A DNA stretch of 64,000 nt from Candidatus Multivoradales bacterium (lineage in GTDB: Bacteria; Acidobacteriota; Thermoanaerobaculia; Multivoradales; Multivoraceae), in assembly GCA_965223325.1 (NCBI GenBank), contig CBDCWI010000001.1:960001-1024000 (forward strand), in the 5' to 3' direction. Shown here in pieces: positions 1,746 to 6,747 of the stretch. The stretch's first letter is position 1. The number at the start of each line of letters is the position of its first letter. The position numbers and the translations under genes are program-made. The notes below the pieces were generated by a model. The model ran no database searches. It worked only from the letters and a program-made list of their open reading frames with translations, and was not told where the DNA came from.

Positions 1746-3149
1746 TCAGGTGGTCTCCCAGCGCCGGGCGAGACAACGCGCGACCGCCATCAAGGTGGCG
1801 CCGATCAAACACATCATGGCGACCTCGGGGGCGATCGAGCGCAGAATGTCGAGCACCCCGGCACCCGGAGCGTCGTACCAGAAGACGTCGAGGAAGCCGT
1901 CGAGCGCCCAGCCGTTGAAGGTGAAGCGAGAGAGCGGCTCGAGAAACGACGGCATGATGTAGCGCGGCACCATGCTGCCGCCGAGCGCCGACATGATGAG
2001 AATCAAAATGGTGGCCATGCCGTTGAGCTGGGCCCGGGTCTTCGCCAGGGCAGCGAGCATCAAGGCGAAGGCAGACGCTGCGCCCGCGGTCACCACAGCC
2101 ATCACCAGGCAACCCACGAAATGGGGTGCGGTAAACAGGTCAACGTCAAAGACCAACGCTCCCCAAACGAACATCAAGAGCACCTGCAAGATCCCGATCG
2201 CCGTGAACCACGCCCAGTAGGCGCCGAGCAGCGTGCCCATCGTGGCGCTCGACGACAACAGGCGCTCGAGAGTCCCGAGCTCGGCCTCGTCTAAGAGGCC
2301 GCTGGCTGCACCGGTGATCGAGAACAGAAGGAACATCACGCCAAAACCGGCGGCGTAGTAGCTCGCCATCGACGGCTGCTTTTCGTCGTCGTCGGCGTGC
2401 GCCGCGGTTGAGGTGACGTCGACGAGACCGGCCATCGCACCGGCGGTGCCTCCCGCATCAAGAGCGCCCTGGCCCTGGAGCATCGGCTGAGCAGCTTCGA
2501 ACGCCGCCTTCTGTTCGTCGGTCAAACCGCCTCCGAACGTGTCGAGAAACTCCATTCCCGTCTCCATCAACCGGCTCGGCGCCGCCTGCATCACGGCTGC
2601 CTGCACCAGTCCCCCGATGGTGTGTTGCGCCATCGGGTTCGAGGCGTCATAGATGACCTCGAACTGCGGTGGTGTTCCTGCCAACGCACCGAGTTGATCG
2701 GCGAAACCCGGCGGAATGAGGAGGGCTGCCGCAATGTCGCCAGAGCGCACGGCGAGGAAGGCCGCATCCCGACGTTCCGTTTCGCCGAGCGTTGTTGCTC
2801 CATCGGGCAGTTCGGGGTCCTCTCGGACGGCGAGGGCCTCATTGCCCGCCAGTGATGCCACCAGAGCGCGACTTGCGCCACTGTTGTCGAGATCGACAAT
2901 GCGGAGCTCGATCGGGCGCAGCGTTGCGCCGCCACCGCCGCCACTGCGGGCACCGAAGATGGTCGCGAAGATCGAGAAGAACACCATCGGCAGAACGAAC
3001 GCCAGGAAGAGCGCCGTCTTGTCGCGACGCAAAGTCCTCCAGAGAACCCACAGCAGCGTCGGAATACCCCGCACGGTTCGGACGAAGCCAGTGGGAGGCG
3101 GTGAGGTGTTGGACACAGAAGCGCTCAATCGCCTACTCCCGCAACTCAT
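1746..3149 (-). CDS. ABC-2 type exporter permease
   Basis: N-terminal TM helix, large extracytoplasmic loop, 'EAELGTLERLL' motif and five C-terminal TM helices; start uncertain (ATG 3149 overlapping the ATPase, or GTG 3116). Confidence 0.9.
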   Translation of the reverse strand: MSCGSRRLSASVSNTSPPPTGFVRTVRGIPTLLWVLWRTLRRDKTALFLAFVLPMVFFSIFATIFGARSGGGGGATLRPIELRIVDLDNSGASRALVASLAGNEALAVREDPELPDGATTLGETERRDAAFLAVRSGDIAAALLIPPGFADQLGALAGTPPQFEVIYDASNPMAQHTIGGLVQAAVMQAAPSRLMETGMEFLDTFGGGLTDEQKAAFEAAQPMLQGQGALDAGGTAGAMAGLVDVTSTAAHADDDEKQPSMASYYAAGFGVMFLLFSITGAASGLLDEAELGTLERLLSSSATMGTLLGAYWAWFTAIGILQVLLMFVWGALVFDVDLFTAPHFVGCLVMAVVTAGAASAFALMLAALAKTRAQLNGMATILILIMSALGGSMVPRYIMPSFLEPLSRFTFNGWALDGFLDVFWYDAPGAGVLDILRSIAPEVAMMCLIGATLMAVARCLARRWETT

Positions 3150-4131
3150 GGCCGGTGAGGTGAAGAAAGACGTCCTGGAGAGTCGGAGCTTCGACTTCCA
3201 GGTCGGTGACGAGGACGCCGGCGCGGCGCAGTTCTTCGAGTCGCCTGGGTAGCTCTCGGGCGAGGTCCTCGAGGCGAAACTCGAGAGCGTCGGGCGGCCG
3301 CGGTGTAAAGGCCGAAAGCTCTGCGGCGGCCTCCGTGTTCGTCGCCCTGACGGTCACCAGGCGGCCCGAACCGATCGTCCGGTCGACGAGCTCATCGAAA
3401 CGTCCGCTGGCAACCGTTCGGCCGTGGTCGACGATCGTGATGCGCTCGCAGACCTGCTGTGCCTCGTCGAGCTGATGGGTTGTCAAGAGTAGCGACGCTC
3501 CACCGCGCTGCAACTCGGCGAGCATCTCCCAGATGCGTTCGCGGCTGTGCGGATCGACCCCGACGGTCGGCTCGTCGAGCAGCAGGATCGACGGCTCATG
3601 CAACGTGGCACAGGCGAGATTGAGGCGTCGCTTCATGCCACCCGAGAACCCTTCCACGAGGTCGTTCCGGCGGTCCTCCAGGTTTGTCCACGAGAGCGCT
3701 TCGGCGACCCGACGCGCCAGGTCACCGTCGGCGACCCCCTGCAGAGCTCCCCAGGCCGCGAGATTCTCCGCCGCCGTCAGCCGGGGATAGAGCGCCACCT
3801 CCTGCGGCACGATGCCGAGCGTGTCGCGAAGCACCAGGGAGGCGGGCGAGCGGGCGACGGTGCGGCCGTGAATTGTGATCGAACCGGAGTCGAGTTCAAC
3901 GCGCCCCGCCAGGGCACGAATCAAGGTGGTCTTGCCAGCTCCGTTGGGCCCGAGTAAGCCCAACCACTCGCCGCGAGCGAGGGACACGTCGACACCCGCC
4001 AGAGCCTGGGTGTCACCGAAGCGCTTGTGGGCGCCGCGAACTTCGAGCACCGTCTCGATTCCTGAGGCGGTCGGTGAGGCGGCGCTCTCCGAACGGCGCT
4101 CGTCGGCGGGCTGGGAGATGGAATCGTTCAC
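3133..4131 (-). CDS. ABC exporter ATP-binding protein
   Basis: Walker A GPNGAGKTT, signature FSGGMKRR, Walker B LLLDEPT, C-terminal 'PTLQDVFLHLTG'. Confidence 0.95.
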   Translation of the reverse strand: MNDSISQPADERRSESAASPTASGIETVLEVRGAHKRFGDTQALAGVDVSLARGEWLGLLGPNGAGKTTLIRALAGRVELDSGSITIHGRTVARSPASLVLRDTLGIVPQEVALYPRLTAAENLAAWGALQGVADGDLARRVAEALSWTNLEDRRNDLVEGFSGGMKRRLNLACATLHEPSILLLDEPTVGVDPHSRERIWEMLAELQRGGASLLLTTHQLDEAQQVCERITIVDHGRTVASGRFDELVDRTIGSGRLVTVRATNTEAAAELSAFTPRPPDALEFRLEDLARELPRRLEELRRAGVLVTDLEVEAPTLQDVFLHLTGHELRE

Positions 4132-4240
4132 GGCGATCAGAGAGTACGCCAGCAGTCGGTCAGGGTGTTGTTCACAAGTCCTCCGCGGTTTCTATGCGCC
4201 GATCTCAACCGACCGACCGGTTGGACTTTGGCTCCCTCTC

Positions 4241-4269
4241 TTGACGCTCCCTACGCTTCGTCCTAACCT
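4241..4269 (+). promoter_or_regulatory. Sigma70-type promoter pointing into the intergenic region
   Basis: TTGACG (4241-4246), 17-bp spacer, TAACCT (4264-4269). Confidence 0.55.
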
Positions 4270-4276
4270 TCTGTTC

Positions 4277-4912
4277 AGTTCGACGCGCGCTGCCCTTCTG
4301 GGTCCTGAGGCCCGCTCACCAAGGAGCCGGGCCCGAATGCGGGCCCAACGATGGAGAGCAGCTCAGCCGTTAGAGGAGGCACCCATGAGTCCGCCGGACC
4401 ACCGTCAGCCCTCGGAAACCGGGTACGGTGACCTGACCGAGGGCCCAGAAAATCACCGGGCGAACGATCGAAGAGCCTGACGAGCCCGCGAAACATTCGC
4501 AACGACGGGCCGACCGTCCGTCGCGTGACCTCCAACCAAAGAGGTCGGGCCAGCTCGCCACCCTGCGGAACTCGTTGGAACGGGGACCGTCACTGACACG
4601 ACGAGCGTCGAGAGAGTCCCGCAACTCTCAGAGACCCCTGCTCTGACCCGCCTCTCCCATCGGTAGCACTGGCCTCGAAAGTTTACCGCCCCGGCGCGTC
4701 GCGCCTCCCGCCAGATCGCCGTGTCTCGACCACGACCCTCGGCCCTGGCAGCCAGGCAGCAGACCCCGGATGCGAGAACTCGAACGCGACGTACGAGCCG
4801 TTCCGCAAGTGCGACCCCATCGGTCTCTTGACCAAGAGCGGTGCACTCGCCGCCAAACGATCCACGCAGACGTTCAAAGAGCGCAGCGGACCACCGCTGC
4901 GCTCTTTCTCTT
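4277..4912 (+). ncRNA. Candidate large structured non-coding RNA (family not recognised)
   Basis: Upstream promoter, downstream 14-bp hairpin, no credible long ORF, many local hairpins and five nested long-range helices (see findings). Confidence 0.5.
4876..4912. terminator. Probable bidirectional intrinsic terminator
   Basis: AAAGAGCGCAGCGG-ACCA-CCGCTGCGCTCTTT perfect 14-bp stem, with TTTCTCTT at its + strand end and TTT at its - strand end; about 90 bp downstream of glnK. Confidence 0.8.
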
Positions 4913-4926
4913 CGTCGACCGCGAGC

Positions 4927-4985
4927 GCCCGGCAACGGCCCGGCAATCGACAGGCAATTGCCCGGGAAACGACTGGGGTGAATCT
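4927..4985. repeat. Four degenerate 11-bp tandem units plus conserved 15-mer (copy 1 of a dispersed element)
   Basis: GCCCGGCAACG/GCCCGGCAATC/GACAGGCAATT/GCCCGGGAAAC then GACTGGGGTGAATCT, whose reverse complement matches 53487-53501 at 14/15 positions. Confidence 0.65.
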
Positions 4986-4998
4986 CTGATTCCTCGGG

Positions 4999-5340
4999 TC
5001 AGCCGATGGCGACGGGACCTCGCTCGCCGGTGCGAATGCGGACGACCTCGCCGAGGTCGAGCACGAAGAGCTTGCCGTCACCAATCTTGCCGGTCTGGGC
5101 TCCCCCGGACACGGCGCTGATGACCTTTTCAACGAACTCGTCGTTGACTGCGATCTCGATCTTCGCCTTGCGCAGGAGTCGACCGCCTTCTTTGTGGCTG
5201 CGGTAGACCTCGGACACGCCCTTCTGGCGCCCGCGGCCCATGACGGGCGTCACGGTACACAGATGCACCTCCGCTTCATCGAGTTTGTCGAGCACTTCGT
5301 CGAGCCGATCCGGCTGAACGATCGCAATGATGTACTTCAC
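4999..5340 (-). CDS. glnK: P-II family nitrogen regulatory protein
   Basis: MKYIIAIVQP..., GRGRQKG, T-loop EVYR, TGKIGDGKLFV, VRIRTGERG; directly downstream of amtB. Confidence 0.95.
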   Translation of the reverse strand: MKYIIAIVQPDRLDEVLDKLDEAEVHLCTVTPVMGRGRQKGVSEVYRSHKEGGRLLRKAKIEIAVNDEFVEKVISAVSGGAQTGKIGDGKLFVLDLGEVVRIRTGERGPVAIG

Positions 5341-5379
5341 GACCTTTTCTCCTCCAGTCTTTAGGTTCTTCGTGCTCGC

Positions 5380-6747
5380 CTAGTCGACGAGGGTGTAGGC
5401 GGTTTCGCGATGCGACGCCAGGTCGAGACCGAGGCGCTCTTCATCGTCTGAGACCCGCAGCCCCACCACCAGGTCGATGACCTTGAGAAGCAGGAAGGAC
5501 GCCAGAGAAGCGTAGACGAGGGTGTAGAGAACTGCCTTCATCTGAATGAGGAGCTGACCGGGGTTGCCGAAGAAGAGACCGTTGATGTCGTTGCCAGGAA
5601 CGGCACTCGTTGCCCACAGTCCGGCGGCGAGGGCGCCCCAAATGCCGGCGACCCCGTGCACGCCGAAGACGTCGAGTGAGTCGTCGTAGCCAAACCGTGG
5701 TTTGAGCACCGTCACAGCTGGCCAGGCGATCACCGACGCGAAACCGCCAACACCAAGCGCCCCGAGGGCATTGACCGAACCACAAGCGGGTGTGATCGCA
5801 ACCAGACCGGCAACCGCACCCGTGATCGCACCGAGAAGCGTTGGCTTCTTCTCGCGCAGCCAGTCGAGTATCGCCCAGCCCAGCGCACCCGCAGCCGCCG
5901 CGACATGCGTCACCACCAGAGCGTTGGCGGCGCTGGCGTTGGCGCCCAGAGCGCTGCCGGCGTTGAAGCCAAACCATCCGAACCACAACAGGCCGGTCCC
6001 CAGAACTGCAAACGGCAGGTTGTGCGGCGGCGACATGCCGTCGGGGTAGTCGCGCCTGCGACCGAGCACCAGCGCCGCCACCAGGGCCGAGACCCCGGCG
6101 TTGATGTGCACGACCGTTCCGCCCGCGAAGTCGAGAGCGTTGTCGGCGCCAAGGCCGAAAAAGCCTTCGGCTCCACCCCACACCCAGTGACACACCGGAG
6201 CGTAGACCAGCAGCAGCCAGAGTCCACTGAACCAACACAAAGCGCTGAACTTGATGCGTTCGGCAAAGGCACCCACCATGAGCGCCGGAGTAATGACTGC
6301 GAACATACCCTGAAAGATCATGAACAGCTGGCCCGGAATCGTCGTCCCATCCCAGGCATCGAAACCGACGCCGCGCAGAAAGAAGTAGTCGCCACCACCG
6401 ATGAAGCCGCCGAGGCGGTCGGAGCCGAAGGCCAGGCTGAAGCCAAACAAGATCCACAGGACGGTCATCAGCCCCATGCACAGAAAGCACTGCATGAGTA
6501 TCGACAAGATGTTCTTGCGGCGCACCAGGCCACCGTAGAAGAACGCCAGGCCGGGCGTCATGAGAAGAACCATCGCGCTGGCCATCAGGACCCAGGCGGT
6601 GTCGCCAGTGTCGATTCCTCCCTGCTCGGAGGCGAGGAGCGGTGGCGTGGCGGCAACGGCCCCGATGAGAAAGGTCGAGAAGACCGCCGCTGGAAAACGA
6701 AGTAGGAGCCAGCGCGGCCTGTGCTGCGGCGGAGAACTGGGGGTCAT
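5380..6747 (-). CDS. amtB: Ammonium transporter
   Basis: DTAWVL..LMTPGLAFFYGG, DFAGGTVVHINAG, WFGWFGFNAGS, DDSLDVFGVHG (twin His). Confidence 0.97.
   Translation of the reverse strand: MTPSSPPQHRPRWLLLRFPAAVFSTFLIGAVAATPPLLASEQGGIDTGDTAWVLMASAMVLLMTPGLAFFYGGLVRRKNILSILMQCFLCMGLMTVLWILFGFSLAFGSDRLGGFIGGGDYFFLRGVGFDAWDGTTIPGQLFMIFQGMFAVITPALMVGAFAERIKFSALCWFSGLWLLLVYAPVCHWVWGGAEGFFGLGADNALDFAGGTVVHINAGVSALVAALVLGRRRDYPDGMSPPHNLPFAVLGTGLLWFGWFGFNAGSALGANASAANALVVTHVAAAAGALGWAILDWLREKKPTLLGAITGAVAGLVAITPACGSVNALGALGVGGFASVIAWPAVTVLKPRFGYDDSLDVFGVHGVAGIWGALAAGLWATSAVPGNDINGLFFGNPGQLLIQMKAVLYTLVYASLASFLLLKVIDLVVGLRVSDDEERLGLDLASHRETAYTLVD

Follow-up and report, generated by a model that had tools for sequence, protein, structure and literature searches.

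The window, a stretch of 64,000 nt from Candidatus Multivoradales bacterium (Acidobacteriota; Thermoanaerobaculia; contig CBDCWI010000001.1 of assembly GCA_965223325.1, positions 960,001 to 1,024,000), contains an 867-bp gap at 4132-4998 in which we describe a putative small transcription unit that carries a miniature open reading frame (mini-ORF) and an RNA hairpin, P1. The gap lies between the gene for an ABC-type ATPase (3133-4131, - strand; Pfam ABC_tran, E 1e-33) and glnK (4999-5340, - strand), with amtB beyond (5380-6747, - strand). An earlier note on this DNA had proposed that the gap holds no credible long ORF and encodes a ~630-nt ornate non-coding RNA, built on five nested long-range helices and equipped with its own promoter and terminator. 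The sequence strings it quoted are all present where it placed them, and the lack of a credible long ORF was borne out. Third-position GC periodicity is missing at 4140-4640 and weak at 4680-4830, none of five gap ORFs of 84-160 amino acids (aa) has a Pfam match, and the longest open frame (4597-4875) has no convincing relative among 60 related genomes, in which five marginal matches reached a best E of 2.6e-4. A pseudogene reading of the gap was rejected on the same absence of Pfam matches and of convincing relatives.

From its sequence, the gap is best explained as one + strand transcription unit that is bounded by the promoter at 4241-4269 and the terminator at 4876-4907 and is an unusually long member of a single-copy family. 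The earlier note had overlooked a Shine-Dalgarno sequence, the 31-codon ORF at 4385-4480 and the hairpin formed by 4408-4415 and 4437-4444. It is very probable that the conserved entity is a transcript of mini-ORF and hairpin rather than a large ornate RNA. The predicted features of the unit and its upstream flank are as follows.

4213-4224, no strand assigned: near-palindrome CCGACCGGTTGG, a possible operator, upstream of the promoter and 16 nt before TTGACG
4241-4269, + strand: sigma-70-type promoter, TTGACG-N17-TAACCT, recognised from sequence; most homologs have TTGACA, 16-18 nt and TAnnnT upstream of the Shine-Dalgarno sequence
4276-4384, + strand: 5' untranslated region of ~109 nt, holding the hairpin GGGCCCG-AATG-CGGGCCC at 4329-4346
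4373-4379, + strand: Shine-Dalgarno sequence GAGGAGG, 5 nt before the ATG; a GGAGG-like site is present in 33 aligned homologs
4385-4480, + strand: mini-ORF of 31 codons plus TGA (4478-4480), MSPPDHRQPSETGYGDLTEGPENHRANDRRA, starting MSPPDH, with Pro-Pro-Asp at 4391-4399
4408-4444, + strand: conserved hairpin P1, in which GCCCUCGG (4408-4415) pairs with CCGAGGGC (4437-4444); 8 bp, pairing probability 0.92
4445-4875, + strand: variable U-poor body, ~430 nt here and ~125-245 nt in homologs
4876-4915, + strand: intrinsic terminator with a 14-bp stem, an ACCA loop and the tail CTCTTCGT; the perfect stem spans 4876-4907

Both the TTGACG-17-TAACCT promoter and the perfect 14-bp hairpin that the earlier note had claimed are there (pairing probability of the hairpin, 0.98). 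A consensus scan for promoters and terminators with stricter thresholds reported neither the promoter at 4241-4269 nor the hairpin at 4876-4907. Transcription would start near 4276. Judged from sequence, the unit has a promoter-like site and a terminator of its own, independent of the flanking genes, as expected of a stand-alone small RNA gene. That part of the earlier proposal which saw a stand-alone + strand unit therefore stands, the arrangement recurring in relatives; the part which saw a large structured RNA does not.

Distribution and layout of the family

The earlier note had suggested a search for DNA homologs as a check. Plain DNA searches with 4132-4917 returned none, whether among 40 relatives or among 56 further genomes belonging to the window's family, and the only matches were chance ones of ~20-50 nt. 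Synteny through the ABC ATPase gave no homologous locus either: the ABC operon has no close ortholog in the same-genus genome, in which the best match to the ATPase is 37% identical. The family surfaced through a syntenic gap in the only other species of the genus (G001), where a unit of ~280 nt lies downstream of glnK on the strand antisense to it. The 5' part of that unit comprises TTGACA-N16-TAGATT, GGAGG-N4-ATG and a 38-aa ORF, MSPPDHLRPSSSG..., with the start MSPPDHLRPS; the 3' part comprises GCCCUCGA...UCGAGGGC and then a GAGCGCAGGGC-TCCG-GCCCTGCGCTC hairpin with a T-rich tail. A 30-nt pattern with at most three mismatches recovered obvious homologs across the order; its raw count of 79 out of 300 genomes includes chance matches, and a reversed-pattern control also matched many genomes. 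An exact pattern, scanned across 185,579 species with one genome per species, returned 55 loci, of which 54 belong to metagenome-assembled genomes (MAGs) of Acidobacteriota, mostly Thermoanaerobaculia or Candidatus Multivorans, Multivoraceae or Multivoradales, with a few Holophagales or Vicinamibacteraceae. The 55th, on a Kribbella contig without the Pro-Pro codons, was taken as a chance match.

A covariance model, R1, was built from 33 sequences and searched against the order under Infernal's stricter filters. It gave exactly one match at E<=1e-5 in each of 58 of the 151 genomes, one of these being an unpublished genome (G180). With the window's genome not counted, matches were found in 25 of 28 genomes of family f1, 16 of 25 of f9, 7 of 23 of f5, 5 of 17 of f7, 2 of 7 of f10 and 2 of 28 of f8, and in none of f2, f3, f4, f6, f11 and f12; these counts come from samples and filtered searches of MAGs of uncultured bacteria, in which not found does not equal absent. 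In a class-wide sample of 151 genomes every R1 match at E<=1e-8 lay inside this order. Among seven matches at E>1e-4 with a locus, six came from other orders and lacked the layout of promoter, Shine-Dalgarno sequence and ATG, and the seventh (G033, same order, MTEPPDQREPS) looked genuine. As far as these sequence searches reach, the family is confined to one order of Thermoanaerobaculia.

Within the family the order of elements is the same: a promoter (TTGACA, 16-18 nt, TAnnnT), GGAGG, the ATG and mini-ORF, a P1 of 7-8 bp, a variable body and an intrinsic terminator. This promoter-to-terminator layout recurs amid unrelated gene neighbourhoods. From the ATG to the end of the terminator the units measure 182-523 nt with a median of 271 nt (35 of 55 units, those in which a script called the terminator), and the 523 nt of the window are the longest. 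Eight homologous loci gave no Rfam match at E<=0.1, and four metagenome runs yielded only short fragments, identical or unrelated, with no variants within the unit. Searches of Rfam, Pfam and the literature, supplementary files lying outside their scope, returned no description of the element, and the conserved gene of mini-ORF and hairpin looks undescribed.

Coding and RNA-level signals at the 5' end

The start of the ORF shows a coding-type substitution pattern across 55 non-redundant units, retained from 57 after the Kribbella match and one unit cut by the end of its locus were dropped. In 44 of these units 3 nt separate the ATG from the first Pro codon, in the other 11 the spacer is 6 nt, and spacers of 4 or 5 nt never occur, under a search pattern that permitted 3-6. 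The codon before Pro-Pro encodes Thr in 48 units (ACA, ACT, ACC, ACG) and Ser in 7 (AGT, TCG, TCT), the serine codon being AGT in the window and TCG in G001, and the first Pro codon is CCG in 32 and CCA in 23. Pro-Pro-[Asp/Gly] is present in 55/55 units, where the search pattern fixed those codons, and also in four divergent members found by the model (G106, G032, G220 and G033). The Shine-Dalgarno sequence is similarly circular in matches from the 185,579-species scan, the pattern of which demanded GGAGG; it is also present in matches from the first pattern search, which did not. Conservation of the peptide is limited to its start, M-(x)-[S/T]-P-P-[D/G]-[H/Q]-x-x-P-[S/P], with nothing conserved beyond about codon 10, and the ORFs of homologs are 8-46 aa long, the shortest being MSTPPDHL in L131 with a stop at codon 9. 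The mini-ORF peptides fall in no Pfam family, and of five looked up one had previously been called as a protein, without a name. The coding-type pattern at the ORF start suggests that the 5' end of the unit is probably translated, which makes the label non-coding doubtful.

Extension of the ORF by frameshifting was considered and rejected. A programmed -1 frameshift would fit the 8-nt spacer and the hairpin, but CCGCCGG is not a slippery heptamer, and a frameshift-extended gene fails since a ribosome in either the -1 or the +1 frame would meet a stop codon within ~35-50 nt. An exact second copy of the 10-mer CGGACCACCG of the conserved ORF start (4395-4404) lies in the terminator hairpin, across its loop and the top of its stem (4887-4896); this is probably coincidence, because the terminator of G001 lacks it.

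P1 begins 8 nt after the D/G codon and 14 nt past the position where the second Pro codon opens; all members inspected, the divergent ones found by the model only among them, share this spacing. In 33 homologs, drawn from ~66 with genus g11 limited to 6 of its 37, 94.3% of the P1 cells are paired, compared with 34-58% in slid controls. Changes on both sides occur at 4 of the 8 pairs, and the observed covariation was reached by none of 500 shuffles. RNAalifold recovered the same 7 pairs from the homologs. At one pair U-A occurs in 19 sequences, C-G in 11 and U-G in 3, and L040 carries GCCUUCA/UGAAGGC. Nearly every unit holds a perfect 7-mer complement for P1 within ~100 nt, far more often than chance would give. 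The 3' arm is read in differing frames by lineage, as EG, RA or PGA. The invariant spacing between the D/G codon and P1 together with the covariation of P1 indicates selection at the RNA level, and across ORF start and hairpin the alignments make selection visible at both the coding and the RNA level.

Folding, body and flanks of the window's unit

The unit was also assessed as a fold. Over 4270-4912, with the terminator, the + strand has a z-score of -5.3 and the - strand one of -3.1, none of 20 shuffles being as low in either case. Over 4270-4870, without the terminator, the z-score is -2.68 on the + strand (1 of 150 shuffles as low) and -0.92 on the - strand (30 of 150). Nineteen random 601-nt windows of the same genome have a mean z-score of -0.61, a standard deviation of 0.96 and a minimum of -2.42. 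Compared with this background the + strand is somewhat better folded, a modest rather than a striking signal. The five long-range helices of the earlier note join the 5' untranslated region at 4277-4358 to 4652-4780, and the ensemble of 4270-4912 predicts two of them, GAGGCC/GGCCTC at a pairing probability of 0.89 and CGATGGAGAG/CTCTCCCATCG at 0.55-0.83; AGTTC/GAACT, GCTGCC/GGCAGC and GGGTC/GACCC have probabilities of ~0. Some 250-300 nt of the body are missing from G001, and most homologs, in which the ATG follows the -10 box after ~30-40 nt, lack the helix segments. Plain DNA searches found no closer relative that carries the helix arms, and a metagenome scan for genus-like relatives gave one locus, from another lineage. 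The ~630-nt architecture based on these helices is not upheld in the family, whose members measure 182-523 nt, mostly lack the segments and covary at the local P1 only.

No known RNA family accounts for the gap, in agreement with the earlier note. A cmscan of 3500-5600 against Rfam at E<=1 matched no family, including OLE, GOLLD, ROOL, HEARO, raiA, 6S, tmRNA and RNase P, and returned only MIR535 (E 0.72) and a sub-threshold match to ncS54 (E 0.023), which scored 23 bits where the gathering score is 43 and spans the terminator hairpin only. Like OLE, GOLLD, ROOL, HEARO and raiA, the unit lies in a long intergenic region that is GC-rich, dense in hairpins and free of a long ORF. It differs from them in having no covariance-model match, a conserved part of ~90 nt with one helix, and long-range helices that are not conserved.

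The body is U-poor on the + strand, with a composition from 4415 to the start of the terminator of A.21, C.37, G.28 and T.13 (family mean.20/.36/.33/.11). It cannot be aligned beyond the genus, has no relatives in 56 other genomes of the window's family and no second copy in its own genome, and it contains the 3' arms of the long-range helices. A repeat or mobile element as the source of the extra sequence was rejected since the unit is single copy in the genome. The extra sequence, with its two predicted helices, reads as a lineage-specific expansion. Within the body, 4680-4830 has a third-position GC bias of 0.80-0.82 in one phase that no start codon, Pfam match or protein relative explains. 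At the 3' end, stems related to that of the window (GAGCGCAGG...CCTGCGCTC) close the unit in G001, G013 and genus g11, and changes at the top of the stem are kept on both arms. The T-richer tail is on the + strand, and the hairpin at 4876-4907 may also stop glnK transcription arriving from the other side. The 88 nt at 4913-5000, from the terminator hairpin to the glnK stop codon, are part of a short dispersed repeat containing GGCAATTGCC, of which ~22 other partial copies (35-83 nt, 73-86% identity) occur on both contigs of the genome; the repeat looks REP-like.

On the 5' side, the stretch from the -10 box to the ATG is ~30-40 nt long in most homologs and ~100-110 nt long in the window and G012 (L069); the sequence of the window's 5' untranslated region is not conserved in homologs. 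Palindromes similar to CCGACCGGTCGG lie 4 nt upstream of the -35 box in the window's family (genus g11, G013 and G012; loci L070, L074, L077, L067 and L069), and among the units of the whole family of elements they were found there only. In the window, an alternative promoter (TGGCTC at 4229-4234 with TACGCT at 4252-4257) would preserve this 4-nt spacing from the palindrome. Placed between the divergent promoter of the ABC operon and that of the unit, the palindrome CCGACCGGTTGG may be an operator for a regulator. Relatives of the ABC ATPase align only from its residue 26, and translation of the ATPase may actually begin at an in-frame GTG near 4053 (VLEVRG...), in which case the gap would be ~75 bp wider. 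In genus g11 (L070, L074 and L089; Candidatus Multivorans) a same-strand ORF of ~500 aa, ending ...AEAIQYRPLDRS, lies ~100 nt past the terminator of the unit, and its product presumably resembles ComM/YifB-type Mg-chelatase-like proteins.

Proposed mechanism and its alternatives

These features may be joined in a mechanism that relies on a translated, cis-acting mini-ORF. A ribosome would be slowed at Pro-Pro-Asp/Gly, a motif of the type that requires elongation factor P (EF-P), with its leading edge at the foot of P1. This placement, with Pro-Pro in the P site and Asp/Gly in the A site, is suggested because P1 begins 14 nt past the start of the second Pro codon. The speed of translation would then determine whether P1 and the downstream RNA keep their fold, and the small RNA could depend on the outcome for its stability, its termination or its regulatory activity. 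In PMC5021804, Pro-Pro-Gly at the start of an ORF is described as stalling ribosomes unless EF-P is present, the stall as uncoupling transcription from translation and altering termination, and the proline-rich leader mgtL as acting via a stem-loop. The identity of the unit and a cis-acting pause, taken jointly, form the best explanation of the data, and one in which we have moderate confidence. The pause-sensor mechanism by itself, in which the rate of mini-ORF translation sets the fold and fate of the small RNA, is advanced tentatively and is rather unlikely as a stand-alone claim. More speculative still is a new class of stand-alone translation-monitoring RNA, an abundant small transcript whose M-S/T-P-P-D/G mini-ORF would serve as a sensor of EF-P or prolyl-tRNA. 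Pausing at the base of P1 would alter how this RNA folds, how long it lasts or how active it is, and would signal the cell's capacity for translation elongation with no operon attached.

Several points weigh against this explanation. Many positions of the motif were set by the search patterns, which makes its conservation partly circular, and the 3' arms of P1 were chosen by script as the best complement, which favours pairing. Conservation of the peptide over ~7-10 residues only, in ORFs of 8-46 aa, disfavours a folded protein and leaves translation a prediction. Pro-Pro-Asp is among the strong EF-P-dependent motifs in work on E. coli, which may not hold in Acidobacteriota. The neighbouring genes reveal no regulated target, no target search having been made. 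The next gene downstream is convergent in ~8 lineages, including the window and G001, and co-directional in ~5, as judged from rough stop-to-stop ORFs with a third-position GC content of at least 0.8, and glnK is a neighbour only in G000 and G001. Finally, R1 matched none of the sampled genomes in 6 of the order's 12 families, and 3 of 28 genomes from the window's family likewise gave no match.

Comparison with known systems brings out what a pausing mini-ORF would share with them. The proline-codon leader ORFs mgtP and mgtL (of the Salmonella mgtCBR and mgtA leaders) resemble the window's unit in having a very short ORF with consecutive Pro codons that adjoins an RNA stem-loop. The speed of the ribosome at these prolines, set by proline supply or EF-P, selects the RNA structure there, as is proposed here. 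The unit has the Pro-Pro ORF beside an RNA structure that marks proline-codon leaders, but not their location: mgtP and mgtL belong to the 5' leader of an operon, which they control through read-through into it, whereas the window's unit ends at its own strong terminator, often faces a convergent gene and has no switch structure in evidence. The dual-function RNAs SR1/SR1P, SgrS/SgrT and VcdRP are likewise stand-alone transcripts of a few hundred nt with their own promoter and terminator, and have a Shine-Dalgarno sequence and a short ORF besides structured RNA. They differ in having a peptide that is conserved over its whole length and acts in trans, and a known base-pairing seed, whereas the window's family conserves 7-10 codons only and has ORFs down to 8 codons; past the ORF start this family shows no conspicuous conserved single-stranded seed, no target search having been made. 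Arrest-peptide leaders of the ermCL, tnaC and secM type control the cistron that follows them, usually in response to a small molecule or force. They too place a conserved short nascent peptide directly upstream of a hairpin that a paused ribosome would remodel; unlike them, the window's unit has no downstream cistron and implies no ligand. By analogy, the unit would work most like proline-codon leaders (mgtP, mgtL) and arrest-peptide leaders, and is built like a dual-function small RNA.

Other explanations of the same sequences have to be weighed against a cis-acting mini-ORF. The unit could be a purely non-coding small RNA in which the GGAGG-AUG-CCGCCGGACCAC block is an RNA-level element, such as a seed or a protein- or ribosome-binding site, that is never productively translated, and in which hairpin and body are functional. 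This would suit the covariation of P1, the unconserved peptide tail and the lineage-dependent frame over the P1 3' arm, the stop at codon 9 in L131 and the several ORFs of 12-14 aa, and the conserved, strand-specific U-poor composition. We regard it as improbable given that an ATG with a Shine-Dalgarno sequence is always present, that the length from ATG to Pro-Pro changes by one whole codon only (44 / 11 / 0), and that Ser/Thr before Pro-Pro is kept through seven codons, including AGT and TCG. Equally improbable is an ordinary small-protein gene whose released peptide (31 aa here) acts in trans via the N-terminal heptapeptide, the hairpin being incidental or stabilising the mRNA. Promoter, Shine-Dalgarno sequence, ATG and terminator do amount to a complete gene, and genus g11 largely keeps a 29-aa ORF length and a PGAA segment. 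Against a trans-acting peptide stand ORFs of 8-15 aa in several lineages, C-terminal parts that are unrelated, the lack of a Pfam family with only one of five peptides ever called and that one unnamed, and the RNA-level selection to which the invariant spacing and the covariation of P1 point.

Two further explanations remain. The ~630-nt ornate RNA with nested long-range helices between 4277-4358 and 4652-4780, as first proposed, retains in its favour two helices predicted at 0.55-0.89, a + strand z-score of -2.68 that lies below all 19 background windows, and the absence of a match to a known family. It is nevertheless very unlikely, with three of the five helices at a probability of ~0, the segments missing from G001 and most homologs, no relative with the helix arms found for an analysis of covariation, and a z-score of -2.7 only ~2 standard deviations from the genome mean. 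Least likely is that the unit works mainly as a convergent antisense regulator or terminator module for amtB-glnK in this genus, or that the gap is mere spacer holding the ABC operon promoter and a shared terminator. It does converge on glnK in both genomes of the genus, and its hairpin, 92 nt past the glnK stop codon, could act both ways; yet glnK is absent near every other homologous locus tested while the core is conserved across six families, and the T-rich tail is on the + strand.

The unit shows how a hairpin-rich gap resembling a large ornate RNA can consist of a small conserved core and a lineage-specific expansion. Such elements are easily overlooked: DNA searches gave no homolog, and gene callers almost never call the ORF. 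Our favoured explanation, a translated mini-ORF acting in cis, would couple a proline-stall motif to an RNA hairpin placed at constant spacing from it, and would represent a simple case of a mini-ORF whose effect falls on the transcript that carries it and not on an operon further along. If the reading is correct, a conserved small gene, present once per genome and described in no RNA or protein library, is carried by an uncultured order of Acidobacteriota that is widespread in the environment.

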